A DNA stretch of 7,510 nt. Source: Paraspadella gotoi. Its lineage: Eukaryota > Animalia > Chaetognatha. Where the stretch lies: contig JBJCIZ010001289.1 of the NCBI GenBank assembly GCA_051294375.1, positions 1-7,510 of the forward strand. The letters run 5' to 3'. The notes beneath the pieces were generated by a model that was given only the letters and a program-made list of their open reading frames with translations, was not told the origin of the DNA and did not search any database. Made by a program: the position numbers and the translations under genes. This document shows positions 141 through 7,510 of the stretch, piece by piece (position 1 is the stretch's first letter; each line of letters starts with the position of its first letter).

Positions 141-715
141 TCATGACAACCATACAACAAAGTGACCAACTAGGGTTAACCCCGTAGTGACGAAACCTTC
201 ATCGCCATATCCCCGCCCCCCGAAAATAGTCCGAAGGATGTTCTTCTTGGCGTGTTGGTCGGCTTTGTCCAGGAGAGACGAAATGACCTTTTTTGGTCCT
301 AAGAGTTGGCAATTGTCGTTTCTAAATGCGCGTCGCTGCACAGACTGCGGCATAGGACCCTTGCGTAGTTGGACGAAATGAAAATTGAGGTTCCGGGAAC
401 TGATTTAATGGTGCCGGCCGATGATGCAGAGGTATCGGCCGAGTGTGCGGCAGGGCTGGCCGTTTTTGGTGCCACCAGAGGAGGCTGAGGATAAGGCCGA
501 CGAAGAGGCGGAGAGGCCGGCCGTATAGGCCGTGGAGCTGGCCTTGCTTTGCCATCTCTGTTTTCCAGTGTCACCGGACGGCGCGAATTGCGGTGAGAGT
601 GGCACCCAGGAGGTTGTGATCCCCGTCGTCAAGAGATGTTGCGTATGGCATTGATGACGTCAATAGCAGCTGTCAATGCGTCTGCAATGTTTACTTCGCC
701 TTTTATTTTACTTAT
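141..715 (-). pseudogene. GC-rich coding-like segment of unknown identity (frameshifted exon or transposon remnant)
   Basis: GC-rich island in AT-rich context with overlapping short minus-strand ORFs. It is preceded on the minus strand by an acceptor-like TTTTCTTTTAG (about 716-726). No recognisable motif and no continuous frame. Confidence 0.2.
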
Positions 716-914: not shown

Positions 915-987
915 GCGGCCAGTGGTGCCGGAGGCAAGTCATTCGCCTTCCAACCGAAAGGTCCGGGGTTCTAGTCCGGTTGTCGCC
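915..987 (+). pseudogene. tRNA-Gly(TCC)-derived sequence (SINE head) with Pol III A/B-like boxes
   Basis: A-box-like TGGTGCCGGAGG 923-934 and B-box-like GGTTCTAGTCC 967-977. Anticodon arm TTCGC-CTTCCAA-CCGAA 942-958. Acceptor-like GCGGC(915-919)/GTCGC(982-986). Stems are imperfect, so it is unlikely to be a functional tRNA. Confidence 0.7.
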
Positions 988-989
988 TA

Positions 990-1063
990 GCAGTTAAGAG
1001 GGACGTGGCGCTTAACCCGCCTGTAACACTGGGTTACAGCCTGATCCGAAGCTTAGGGACTGC
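990..1063 (+). ncRNA. Twister ribozyme, type P5 (slightly degenerate)
   Basis: P5 GCAGTT(990-995)/GACTGC(1058-1063); GA 1002-1003; UAA 1013-1015; GC 1019-1020; P3 CTGTAAC/GTTACAG; P4 CCTGA/TTAGG; L4 T-CCG-AA-GC 1045-1052. Deviations: the T1 partner is CGT rather than CGG, P2 is GAGG/CCC, and P1 is weak. Confidence 0.7.
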
Positions 1064-2446: not shown

Positions 2447-2700
2447 TGTGCGGTTAATTCACACTGCCTCACGTCCACCATCCTTCAGCCAAATCCATTG
2501 GCTCAGAGGGGGAACACACCATCCCAGGCGTAGTGTTCCATCCACAGTCCTAACGACTTCCCTCTGCGTTGGCAAAGCGGAGACCGTCCTAGGGTAACCG
2601 CGCCAGTGACTGGAGGCGTCACTGAGGGTCGGAAGCCCCCAAAGCCAACAGTGAATGCCCCATCCCAATGGGCATCACAGGCAACCCGGCTGTTGCCATA
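2447..2700 (+). repeat. 5' LTR (254 bp)
   Basis: Aligns along its full length with 2896-3137. Begins TGTGCG, ends GTTGCCATA. Confidence 0.85.
2568..2649 (+). ncRNA. Twister ribozyme, type P5, in 5' LTR; predicted cleavage U2595/A2596
   Basis: P5 GTTGGC(2568-2573)/GCCAAC(2644-2649); P2 GCGG(2577-2580)/CCGC(2598-2601); GA 2582-2583 preceded by one extra A; T1 CCG(2584-2586)/CGG(2630-2632); short P1 hairpin TC-CTAG-GG; UAA 2595-2597; GC 2602-2603; P3 CAGTGAC/GTCACTG; P4 GGG/CCC; L4 T-CGG-AA-GC. Confidence 0.8.
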
Positions 2701-2703
2701 AGT

Positions 2704-2712
2704 TGGTGAGCC
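2704..2712 (+). promoter_or_regulatory. Candidate primer-binding site (PBS)
   Basis: TGGTGAGCC starts 3 nt after the LTR end, and TGG complements tRNA CCA. It is compatible, with one G-U pair, with a tRNA 3' end GGCUCGCCA as in vertebrate tRNA-Arg(ACG). The tRNA assignment is tentative. Confidence 0.55.
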
Positions 2713-2895
2713 CTACTATCAACAACGCAACCTTCTCAAGGTTACGCTACGACAACGCATATTGCCCCTGGGTACGCTACGACAAACGCCTACCCCCACA
2801 ACTCAGCGCCTCTCTCTCTCTTGCCCACTATGTTAACAGTCTTGTCAGACACCTCTCAGGCTTGAGGAACCTGAGTGATGTCTTGGCCGGGATCC

Positions 2896-3137
2896 TGTGC
2901 GTATATTTCACACTGCTCACGTCCACCATCCTTCAGGCCAAATTCCATTGGCTCAGAGGGGAACACACCATCCCAGGCGTAGTGTTCCATCCGACTTCCC
3001 CTCTGCTTGGCAAAGCGAAGACCGTCCTAGGGTAACCGGCCAGTGACTGGAGCGTCACTTGAGGTCGGGAACCCCAAAGCCAACAGGCAGATGCCCATCC
3101 CAACATGGCAATCACAGGCAACCCGGCTGTTGCCATA
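2896..3137 (+). repeat. 3' LTR (242 bp)
   Basis: Copy of 2447-2700 with an 11-bp deletion (ACAGTCCTAAC) and many single-base indels. Confidence 0.85.
3007..3083 (+). ncRNA. Twister ribozyme, type P5, in 3' LTR (degenerate as read); predicted site U3033/A3034
   Basis: Homologous to 2568-2649 and keeps GA-CCG-TCCTAGGG-TAA, P3 AGTGAC/GTCACT and P5 TTGGC/GCCAA. P2 is disrupted and L4 reads TCGGGAAC, lacking AAGC. Confidence 0.6.
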
Positions 3138-3292
3138 CTAGATACTTTCTTTCTCTGAATTCTTAAACCATAAGCCATAAACGAGTAAGACGATGGGTAC
3201 AATTGAAAGTGATATGTCTCTAGATGATAAAAAATTTTTCTTTAGTTTTTATTCGAAAAGAAAGATTTACAAACAATAGTAAGCATAAATAA

Positions 3293-3795
3293 TAAAGATT
3301 CAAGTAAATGTGACTTATTTTTTTTCCATTTAAACTCATTTCCACTGGCACAATTCCATCAAAACTTTACATCTAGCTTCTTCACACACTTTCCTACCCA
3401 CACACAAAATTTCATCTCAATCTATCCATCCAATTATGATAAATTAGAGTAATTATTGGTTAAAATAAGTAAAAAGATTTTAGTAAATGCTATTTATTTT
3501 TTTTTCCATTTAAACTCATTTTTGTTCGCACTATTCCATCGAAACTTTATATTCGGCTTCATCACACACTCCTACCCAAACACAAAATTTTATTTCAATC
3601 CGACCATCCAATAACGAGTAATTGGAGTTTTTTGCTAAGGTGGGATGGATGGACGGACGGACGGACAAACGGAAGGACAGACATCGTTTTTTTGCATAAT
3701 TTATCATAATTCGATGTTCTGACAAGATAAAATGATTTACCGACAAGATTCAGGGTGCGGACCGACGGACCGACAAAGTGAATTATAGAGTCGCG
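3293..3795 (+). mobile_element. HINE/DINE-1-like (Helentron-associated) non-autonomous element
   Basis: Two tandem core repeats of about 179 bp (AAAGATT..AGTAAATG at 3294 and 3473; shared TTCCATTTAAACTCATTT, CCTACCCA.ACACAAAATTT). These are followed by a GGAT/GGAC microsatellite at 3643-3682 and the end ..GACAAAGTGAATTATAGAGTCGCG. The family call rests on architecture only, and the terminal hairpin is incomplete. Confidence 0.55.
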
Positions 3796-4238
3796 ATCCA
3801 CTGAAAGCAGAAAATATCAATCCAATGTCAGGAATGTTAAAATACAAATAAAAAAAATTTTGAACGACATCAGCCAAAGTTTTTTTTTAAAGAAAACAGA
3901 GCAAACAAATAATTACGGGAAGGGTTGCAAAAGGTTTCTATGTTAAATTTTTCCCCTTTTTTTCTGAAAAAAGAAAGGAAAGACAACAATTTAATATATC
4001 GCGAAGAAAAATCAATTGTCAAAATGAGATTGATATTGATTTTGTCATAAAAGTCGATAAAAGTAGATTGTCGAGAATGAAGATTTTATTATAGGAAAGT
4101 TTAAGTTAAACAACAAGTATACAATAAATAAAATAAAAGTTAACAATAAATGCTTTTTTTTCTGGAAAGAAAATAAATAGACTGTGGCAGCAAGACTTAA
4201 AGCTGCCTCACTGCTGTCCGTCCTCAGCCTCGTCTCAA

Positions 4239-4292
4239 TGGCTGAGCAGGCTAAATCATCTTATTCCATCCGTGCGTCCCGGGTTCAATCCC
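4239..4292 (+). promoter_or_regulatory. tRNA-type Pol III internal promoter (A and B boxes) inside the solo LTR
   Basis: A box TGGCTGAGCAGG 4239-4250 and B box GGTTCAATCCC 4282-4292 at tRNA-like spacing (43 nt start to start). TTCCA lies at the anticodon-equivalent position. Confidence 0.65.
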
Positions 4293-4306
4293 TGGGTATC
4301 CCGGTT

Positions 4307-4386
4307 CTGGCTTAAATGTGACGGTGTCGGTATAAACATGCCATTGACAGGAGGCGGTCACTGAGGGTCCGCAGCCCCTCCGCCAG
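4307..4386 (+). ncRNA. Twister ribozyme, type P5, in solo LTR; predicted cleavage U4333/A4334
   Basis: P5 CTGGC(4307-4311)/GCCAG(4382-4386); P2 ATGT(4316-4319)/ACAT(4336-4339); GA 4320-4321; T1 CGG(4322-4324)/CCG(4369-4371); P1 TG-TCGG-TA; UAA 4333-4335; GC 4340-4341; P3 CATTGAC/GTCACTG with one mismatch; P4 AGGG/CCCT; L4 T-CCG-CA-GC (CA instead of AA). Confidence 0.85.
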
Positions 4387-4684
4387 TTGGTGAGATACCC
4401 CGCGCCCCGGGTATCACAGGCTATCCTCCCGTTGCCATAAGACAACAATTTTATGTGTTCGCGAGAATGAAAGGAATAACGATTGTGAATAATTAATAAT
4501 GTACATAATCAAGATTGATTTTTATTTAATGTTTAGATTATATGAATAGACTAAATATATTTATATTTTTAATTTTATTTACTTTTTTTATTTATTTAAT
4601 TTATTTATTCCTTCTTTTTATATATTTTTCTTATCATTTTTATTTATTATTATAGGAAAGACACAGTTAAACTTGTTTATAAAG

Positions 4685-4935
4685 TTAGTTGGGAGGGCCG
4701 CCGTCCCGATTTATCAAAAGGTTGGCGTTTTCCCTTTGAAGCGCTATGGTATGGATAGCCTTTGAAAGAAGTATTTGCATTCCAAAGCGTTTATTTTCCC
4801 CCAACGCCTTGCATGTTGGTGGGCGAAGGCTTTAAGAAAGGGCAGGGCTTCCTTGTCCCAGCCACCGAATGTCTCAACAATTAGTGGTTGGAAAAAGATT
4901 CCCTGTGTTTGACAGAGAGCAACATGGGCGTTCTG
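4685..4935 (-). pseudogene. 3' end of a CRE-clade-like non-LTR retrotransposon ORF (C-terminus of the restriction-like endonuclease), 5'-truncated
   Basis: Minus strand reads NAHVALCQTQGIFFQPLIVETFGGWDKEALPFLKAFAHQHARRWGKINALECKYFFQRLSI then ALQRENANLLINRDGGPPN*. The frame is broken by a 5-bp duplication TATGG-TATGG at 4745-4754. An A-rich tail follows (T-rich on + at about 4560-4650). F.P..VET.GGW and FQRLS.ALQR.NA are typical of CRE-like elements. Confidence 0.8.
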
Positions 4936-7176: not shown

Positions 7177-7510
7177 ACCTGCGACCGCGAGGAGGATGAG
7201 CACGGCGACCACGCCATGCACTGTCACGACGACCAGGGAGTTAGGGAGGCCGCCACAATCGAATTCGGGACAGAATCTATTCTGAGGCTCAATTCGCGAG
7301 CCTTGACCCGAAAAAAGGAGCACCGGGCCTCGTTCCAGATCCCAATCTCGCCCCGCGGACGTCTACATCCCTAACTGGATTGATGGCCGAAAAATGGCCT
7401 TTGACGTTTCTGTCGTCTCTCCCGTTCAAGAGCCATTGTTTCTCAGGCCGCCACCACCCGCCGCAGCTGCAATTGAATGCGCAAAACCTCCAAAATGCGC
7501 AACCACTTTG
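7177..7510 (+). pseudogene. CRE-clade-like non-LTR retrotransposon fragment: zinc knuckle and restriction-like endonuclease, frameshifted, runs off the window
   Basis: Joined across frameshifts: TCDREEDEHGDHAMHCHDDQG / GRHNRIRDRIYSEAQFASLDPKK / SRPADVYIPNWIDGRKMAFDVSVVSPVQ / AAAAIE / RKTSKMRNHF. Partial CCHC knuckle, RHN (7251-7259), RPAD (7349-7360) and DV.V.SP motifs of the RLE domain. Confidence 0.85.

Follow-up and report, generated by a model that had tools for sequence, protein, structure and literature searches.

Plant LTR retrozymes are non-coding elements with two LTRs, a 4-bp target-site duplication (TSD), a PBS and a purine tract; a self-cleaving ribozyme motif lies in each LTR, solo LTRs occur, and a Gypsy element serves as helper (PMC4918200). 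Their RNA is circularised, and the circle is then reverse-transcribed by the Gypsy helper (PMC4918200). The circles are thought to be closed by tRNA ligases and not by the ribozyme (PMC7229834). PMC7761336, PMC6765202, PMC7229834 and 10.64898/2026.07.22.740005 describe LTR retrozymes as hammerhead-bearing and mainly from plants; in animal retrozymes, by the same accounts, LTR, PBS and PPT are all missing. Helenus (TRIMp3), a separately described class, consists of TRIMs with tRNA-derived sequence in the LTR; its animal members have a 4-bp TSD and a Gypsy-type PBS, including Trp (PMC10886601). For the published Helenus families, Pol III transcription is putative, and Kojima assumed that their solo LTRs arise by recombination (PMC10886601). 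The CsRn1 lineage of Ty3/Gypsy is known from trematodes and insects (PMC2582038, PMC3630058). Twisters have been linked in print to non-LTR RTE elements such as Perere-3, whose variants, like the fold described below, are retrotransposon-linked and have a weak P1 (Liu et al. 2021, PMC8501958). In contrast to that fold, they are P1-type twisters at the 5' end of a non-LTR RTE, one per copy, without LTR, PBS or tandem pair.

Here, we analysed 7,510 nt of AT-rich eukaryotic repeat DNA (the window), which holds three related G+C-rich units on the + strand at 2447-2700 (A), 2896-3137 (B) and 4183-4439 (C). We read them as a twister LTR retrozyme family, with a Pol III transcript that would be cut in both LTRs, circularised and copied by a helper; we put the probability of this full model at roughly 0.6. 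Its directly visible parts are the two LTR subfamilies, the 4-bp TSDs, the PBS, the G-rich tract, the A and B boxes, the twister fold with its compensatory pairs, and an empty site. The structural features of plant LTR retrozymes named above recur here, with helper, cleavage and circles predicted. The differences are a twister in place of the type III hammerhead, a Trp-type PBS in place of Met, a smaller size (LTRs of 254-257 nt and an interior of 195 nt), tRNA-type boxes in the LTR, thousands of copies as opposed to tens to hundreds, and a host that is probably an animal. No match to the Rfam hammerhead was found in the window. Because a twister fold stands where a hammerhead is required, the element would work like a retrozyme but lies outside the published retrozyme definition. 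In the open-access literature, no LTR element bearing a twister came up. We regard the feature as real, and as new in that it joins the retrozymes and Helenus.

Two LTR subfamilies and their insertions

Units A and B are direct repeats enclosing 195 nt, with a CTAG duplication outside (2443-2446 and 3138-3141), and unit C stands alone between two copies of AGAC. The 254-nt 5' LTR of subfamily A (2447-2700) is followed by a tRNA-Trp-type PBS (2704-2713), whose first 10 bases match the CsRn1-lineage PBS in PMC2582038. The internal region (2701-2895) has no recognised protein and ends in a G-rich tract (2886-2895); the G-run before the 3' LTR is longer in family contigs than in the window copy. 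One overlapping frame was found in this region, without a Pfam match, and neither a gag with the CHCC motif nor a pol lies between the LTRs. The whole element measures 691 bp and has the architecture of an LTR retrozyme: two LTRs, a non-coding interior, a PBS with a purine tract and a 4-bp TSD. In pairwise alignment, the 3' LTR (2896-3137) is 85.8% identical to the 5' LTR with 24 gap columns. Its departures from its partner are mostly short indels, which may be assembly error and not a sign of age. Few contigs match the 3' LTR best, so its indels reflect either decay or assembly error.

Evidence on the family came from contigs of public runs (X1, X3, X5, X9 and X10) placed on the window sequence. 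In X1, subfamily A reached a depth of 101,232 at the LTR-PBS junction and 231,863-311,633 within the LTR; at this proportion, many subfamily A copies lie in full elements. Run X10, labelled organism B, yielded nine low-depth contigs covering both LTR subfamilies (2510-2738 and 4205-4388) and other repeats of the window; these come either from a close relative or from admixed material. The X9 contigs likewise cover other repeats of the window besides the LTRs; X9 and X10 may be RNA runs, but with this wider coverage neither was counted as a sign of transcription. A search of prokaryote genomes with the LTR-PBS junction pattern gave 0 matches.

The solo LTR of subfamily C (257 nt, 4183-4439) is flanked by AGAC at 4179-4182 and 4440-4443, and the sequence on either side is unrelated. 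It starts TGTGGC and finishes GCCATA, giving TGT...ATA ends with a 9-nt imperfect inverted repeat. Contig depth jumps at 4183 and drops at 4439 in 4/4 runs, about thousandfold over the flanks; in X1, it was 206,000-407,000 inside the solo LTR and 46-440 in the upstream flank bins (3954-4169). Among the contigs listed, the long ones had depths of 8-33, and the depth ratio near ten thousand points to a family of thousands of copies, with summed contig depth giving relative abundance only and no copy number. Many contigs exit the subfamily C unit exactly at its borders into unrelated flanks. In addition, one contig per run, in 4/4 runs, joins 4178 to 4440 and keeps a single AGAC; the joint skips 261 nt, that is, the 257-nt unit plus one AGAC, and was seen in 3/4 runs when both subfamilies were on offer. 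This is the empty site that the earlier note had asked for, and together with the sequence it bears out the claim of an independent insertion with these borders and an AGAC TSD. The empty site may be a paralogue, since the joint has a shorter side of just 24 nt and the flanking DNA is repetitive too. The claim that A and C share termini and near-identical length (254 and 257 nt) despite strong divergence also held, with 165 identities in 264 alignment columns (62.5%).

A two-LTR parent of subfamily C had been sought as well, and public contigs supplied one. Among the contigs listed, at least 9 in X1, at least 12 in X3 and at least 2 in X9 run from the end of subfamily C into a PBS, although some in X1 may be subfamily A ends and the X5 row (6) is mixed. 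Past the subfamily C PBS, the X3 and X9 contigs carry sequence unlike the interior of A, as X9 repeats with both subfamilies on offer, and one X9 contig runs from a G-rich tract into the subfamily C LTR. We infer from these contig ends that subfamily C has two-LTR parents. The window's C copy differs from >99% of the X1 family depth at 4262, 4327, 4344 and 4380. It has thus drifted at four positions, one within P3, and the P3 mismatch at 4344 is private to it. A MITE reading of the 9-nt imperfect inverted ends was ruled out: the LTR unit also forms direct repeats around a PBS and a G-rich tract. In family contigs with a joint from 2888 to 2450, the LTR starts TATGG besides TGTGG, and the inverted ends of some copies are perfect over 6 nt.

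From the solo LTR, the earlier note had deduced LTR-LTR recombination. That does not follow, since cDNA from a retrozyme circle has been proposed to yield solo LTRs directly (Discussion of PMC4918200), so the unit at 4183-4439 need not be a recombination scar. Its origin is either a recombination between two LTRs or a short cDNA copied off a circle, two routes that look alike in the present data.

The TGT...ATA ends, the 4-bp TSD and the Trp-type PBS agree with the description of the CsRn1 lineage (PMC2582038, PMC3630058), in which PwRn1 and AgCR have the same ends and TSD and a PBS starting TGGTGAG/CCCC. These matches argue for a helper of CsRn1 type and for an animal host, and the family is likely moved by a Gypsy element of that lineage, though no such helper came up. 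Unlike CsRn1 elements, the present one has no gag or pol of its own and would have to borrow both, and its PBS departs from the published motif after 10 bases. In another account, the LTR and its twister belong mainly to an autonomous CsRn1-type Gypsy element, with the solo LTRs and the short two-LTR element as by-products. Every end signal would fit this origin, and so would the dissimilarity between the sequence behind the subfamily C PBS and the subfamily A interior. However, the short subfamily A interior is itself very deep (120,181 in bin 2820-2889 of X1), Pol III boxes fit short RNAs. In the view of Kojima, the autonomous partners of such TRIMs are transcribed by Pol II and have no LTRs in common with them (PMC10886601). 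We regard an autonomous owner of these LTRs as improbable and keep to the helper-copied twister retrozyme.

Several other features lie in the window. Frameshifted C-terminal fragments of a non-LTR retrotransposon protein occupy 4694-4929 (- strand) and 7177-7510 (+ strand); they are 56-71% identical to proteins P0026 and P0029, which carry PF00078, and we take them to be CRE-like by motif. At 141-628 (- strand), a GC-richer stretch of overlapping open frames, with no match to Pfam or to P0026/P0029, is possibly another retroelement fragment. Three pairs of long inverted repeats, 80-89% alike (1068-1196/5991-6113, 1205-1329/3666-3786 and 1612-1727/5514-5622), are probably oppositely oriented copies of small non-autonomous DNA elements. 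At 3285-3628, a repeat present as two tandem units reaches a depth near 1 million in X1, and an imperfect palindrome of about 220 nt (1744-1963) is 71% self-complementary.

The twister fold and its paired changes

The solo LTR contains a type-P5 twister fold with a P3 at 4307-4386 (+ strand), recognised by a descriptor match, shuffles and a pair table. Its parts are P5 (4307-4311/4382-4386), P2 (4316-4319/4336-4339), GA (4320-4321), the T1 pseudoknot (4322-4324/4369-4371), an 8-nt P1 linker (4325-4332), UAA (4333-4335), GC (4340-4341) and an 8-nt L4 (4368-4375). The fold predicts a cut at U4333/A4334, LTR position 151/152. The counterpart in the 5' LTR of subfamily A lies at 2568-2649, with a predicted cut at 2595/2596. 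In the whole window, the twister-P5 descriptor matched exactly these two places on the + strand, with 0 matches on the - strand and 0 in the 3' LTR. When the solo LTR was dinucleotide-shuffled, the descriptor matched 0/40,000 of the resulting sequences, both strands included. Both subfamilies have the P5-type strand order with P2 and P4, subfamily A P2 taking a 1-nt bulge, and both form 3/3 Watson-Crick pairs in T1 and 2/2 in T2. Against the Rfam consensus, the conserved GA, UAA, GC and U...AAGC are all present, with one exception: subfamily C departs at the leading A of AAGC. A list of ten twister positions conserved at >97% was reportedly given by Roth in 2014. A 7-bp hairpin read from the sequence 3' of the twister (4394-4415) also has a counterpart in subfamily A.

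The GA, UAA, GC and 8-nt L4 said to be retained were all located in the solo LTR. As for the P1 hairpin, also said to be retained, its length of 8 nt is kept and its sequence is not: the counterpart at 2587-2594 is different, and the stem has just 2-3 bp, G-U pairs included. Both P1 8-mers are fully self-complementary if G-U is allowed; the idea of a twister dimer is weak nonetheless, because just the inner one or two P1 pairs exceed what a hairpin needs. In 2-8% of the subfamily C depth, position 4325 has a variant base with which the outer P1 pair would be lost. In other twisters, P1 is reported to be dispensable (PMC5408937).

The order P2(3')-GA-T1-P1 hairpin-UAA-P2(5')-GC-P4-L4, closed by P5, is that of the type-P5 twister (Rfam RF02684; L003-L005). 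The present folds differ from RF02684 in a P1 of 2-3 bp against about 8, a 7-bp P3, swapped T1 pairs, a C in place of A28 in subfamily C, and scores below the Rfam thresholds. Rfam gave no twister match for the solo LTR (4290-4400), even at E 10. For subfamily A it gave a weak twister-P1 match at 2601-2644 (15.2 bits, E 0.63; gathering cut-off 67.2), in an alignment that spans P3, P4 and L4. The short P1, the presence of P3 and the swapped T1 pairs may explain both outcomes. Among five viral loci with the canonical twister pattern, three are Rfam Twister-P5 (L003-L005), with long P1 and without P3. A separate search for relatives elsewhere yielded none. The P3-P4 motif pattern had 0 matches in metagenome contigs. 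A looser twister pattern had 34 loci, none similar to the window by BLAST; two of them pass a relaxed descriptor, but P3 is absent there and P2 has a mismatch. Five viral loci from this search had 0/4 P2 pairs.

Judged by the mutagenesis of Osa-1-4, the changes that set the family apart from the canonical twister are tolerated ones. Position 4372, the C of the L4 'CA', corresponds to A28 of Osa-1-4, where A28C has a relative activity of 1.00 and A28G of 0.48 (supplement of PMC5113685; matrix columns as we interpret them). The T1 swaps C27G/G47C and C26G/G48C keep 0.86 and 0.74, and the unpaired single changes 0.13 and 0.09 (PMC5113685 supplement). Since C4372 has no listed difference in four runs at the 8% threshold, the L4 'CA' is family-wide in subfamily C.

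Of the 28 twister pairs, A and C have 18 in common. Another 6 have changed in a compensatory way, 2 have a change in one partner only and can still pair, and 2 are broken. Random placement of the same 17 changes reached 6 compensatory pairs in 5/400,000 trials and expects 1.1 compensatory and 10.4 broken, in a test on two sequences, or lineages, with the structure fitted to both, which is not R-scape. Among the 19 pairs whose register is anchored by conserved loop bases, 4 are compensatory (null 10/400,000). The earlier note had described all its named helices as kept through paired changes. All are indeed present, and the covariation is smaller than described. In the 5' LTR of subfamily A, P2 forms only if one additional A is left unpaired ahead of GA, and about half of the subfamily A depth in X1 (153,360/311,633) lacks one G in P2; with the register thus shifted, P2 yields two clean compensatory pairs and not three. 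T1 and P5 yield one each, and the outermost P5 pair is lost. Even so, the claim of selection on the fold across two subfamilies is sustained by this two-sequence comparison, and the twister fold is very probably under selection.

Could the fold be a relic, or serve another structural role such as packaging or dimerisation, with no cleavage? The family would then be plain TRIMs, with solo LTRs formed by recombination. The lack of an Rfam match for the solo LTR, the very short P1 and the irregular P2 of subfamily A would suit such an account. In addition, the MFE fold of 4300-4392 (z -0.32) disfavours the active structure: P5 and P4 form, and P1, P2 and P3 are absent, in a calculation that ignores pseudoknots. 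The centroid fold of the subfamily A twister shows P5, P2, P1 and P3. Against a relic, the LTR has changed by 37% and yet preserves its catalytic GA and UAA, its two pseudoknots and the length of L4, the changes fall at tolerated positions, and other twisters manage without P1. An inactive fold is thus a poor candidate in our view, and the self-cleaving twister retrozyme is preferred.

tRNA-type boxes and the relation to Helenus

Upstream of the twister, the solo LTR has a tRNA-type box A (TRGCY..AG..GG, 4239-4250, + strand) of the motif used for Helenus (PMC10886601), and a T-arm with box B (4279-4295) with 5/5 stem pairs and a loop of 7 nt; its distance from box A, 44 nt, is the one usual in tRNA genes. 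In subfamily A, box A fits the motif pattern at 2499-2511, and a T-arm-like sequence at 2531-2547 has 4/5 pairs, GTTC after T and a 36-nt spacing from box A. Box A together with a T-arm occurred in 0/20,000 shuffles for each subfamily. A functional tRNA gene at the boxes was ruled out, as ARAGORN found 0 genes. The earlier note had overlooked both the tRNA-type boxes and the CsRn1-type end signals. At about 916-990 (+ strand), a further tRNA-like head, with a motif resembling box B, has the look of a SINE head by eye and fails the strict box patterns.

The element corresponds to Helenus in being a TRIM of <1 kb (691 bp) with a PBS and PPT and with 4-bp TSDs (CTAG and AGAC), and subfamily C carries a box A (TRGCY) and a box B (GGTTC). 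It is a Helenus-like TRIM, with Pol III transcription predicted from these motifs. Helenus also has tRNA-derived boxes of both kinds in its LTR, a TSD of 4 bp in its animal members and a Trp PBS of Gypsy type, and differs in that its LTR finishes ACA and the present one ATA (PMC10886601). In the text of PMC10886601, the word ribozyme stands just once, in a reference title, 'twister' is absent (0) and a hammerhead is unreported. The Helenus supplement contained no exact string match to the present family or to the canonical twister L4; of 14 AAGCCC places inspected, none lies in a twister context.

We inspected 12 published Helenus LTR ends, and 10 have a T-run soon after box B (supplement of PMC10886601). 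The other two, Helenus-2_SyJa and Helenus-2_SyUm from Synergus wasps, have a Trp-type PBS and are two of the five matches to CUGAUGAG in that supplement. At the place of the T-run, both have what we take, by eye and by the hammerhead consensus, to be a complete-looking type III hammerhead. Its loops I and II are presumably complementary over about 12 nt, again judged by eye. On this by-eye reading, these two LTRs resemble the present ones in having a ribozyme core directly after box B, so a ribozyme in that position is not unique to the window. No T4 run occurs in the 691-nt element or in the solo LTR, which is not significant, because 890/2,000 and 1,748/2,000 shuffles lack one too. The first T4 run downstream of the solo LTR lies in its flank (4449-4452) and may act as a Pol III stop for its transcript.

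The predicted RNA cycle and its meaning

In the full model, Pol III would initiate just upstream of box A, and the twisters of both LTRs would cut; the released unit (2596-3033, about 438 nt) would have no terminal repeat. A host ligase would close this unit into a circle, by analogy with plant retrozymes. tRNA-Trp would then prime the reverse transcriptase of the helper, whose integrase would insert the copy.

A competing possibility is that the active twister forms the 3' end in place of a Pol III terminator, leaving a linear TRIM RNA and no circle; after a cut in the 3' LTR and not in the 5' LTR, the two RNA ends would share about 100 nt of repeated sequence. It would account for ribozyme and T-run sharing one position in alternative Helenus LTRs (2 hammerheads and 10 T-runs among the 12 inspected), and for the T4-free element and solo LTR. 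The competing fold of subfamily C is also in keeping with it. Nor does the predicted circle stand out for its stability (59% paired, z -0.94, with the indel-rich 3' LTR included), against >70% paired reported for retrozyme RNAs (PMC4918200). However, transcription would run through a complete twister in either LTR, so cleavage is to be expected in the 5' one as well; the absence of T4 runs is not significant; and plant LTR retrozymes accumulate cut-to-cut circles (PMC4918200). We consider a role confined to 3'-end formation unlikely, and favour the circularising twister retrozyme.

A broader reading goes further, and we offer it tentatively, as doubtful on present evidence. Animals would harbour a so far unrecognised class of Pol III-driven, Trp-primed LTR retrozymes with an exchangeable ribozyme after the promoter, multiplying via circles, with circle-born solo LTRs and a twister that is maybe dimeric. 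As part of the same reading, the module would be a twister here and what we take to be a type III hammerhead in Synergus wasps.

Apart from the Schistosoma case of RTE type, most eukaryotic twisters have been given no role. As Rfam misses the present folds, more such motifs have likely been overlooked. The family is a small, tractable system, with a predicted ribozyme of 80 nt and a circle of known predicted size, and it offers a test of solo LTRs as primary insertion products against recombination scars. A twister in an LTR family of thousands of copies would make the retrozyme design independent of ribozyme class and of plants, and would unite two separately described classes, the retrozymes and Helenus.
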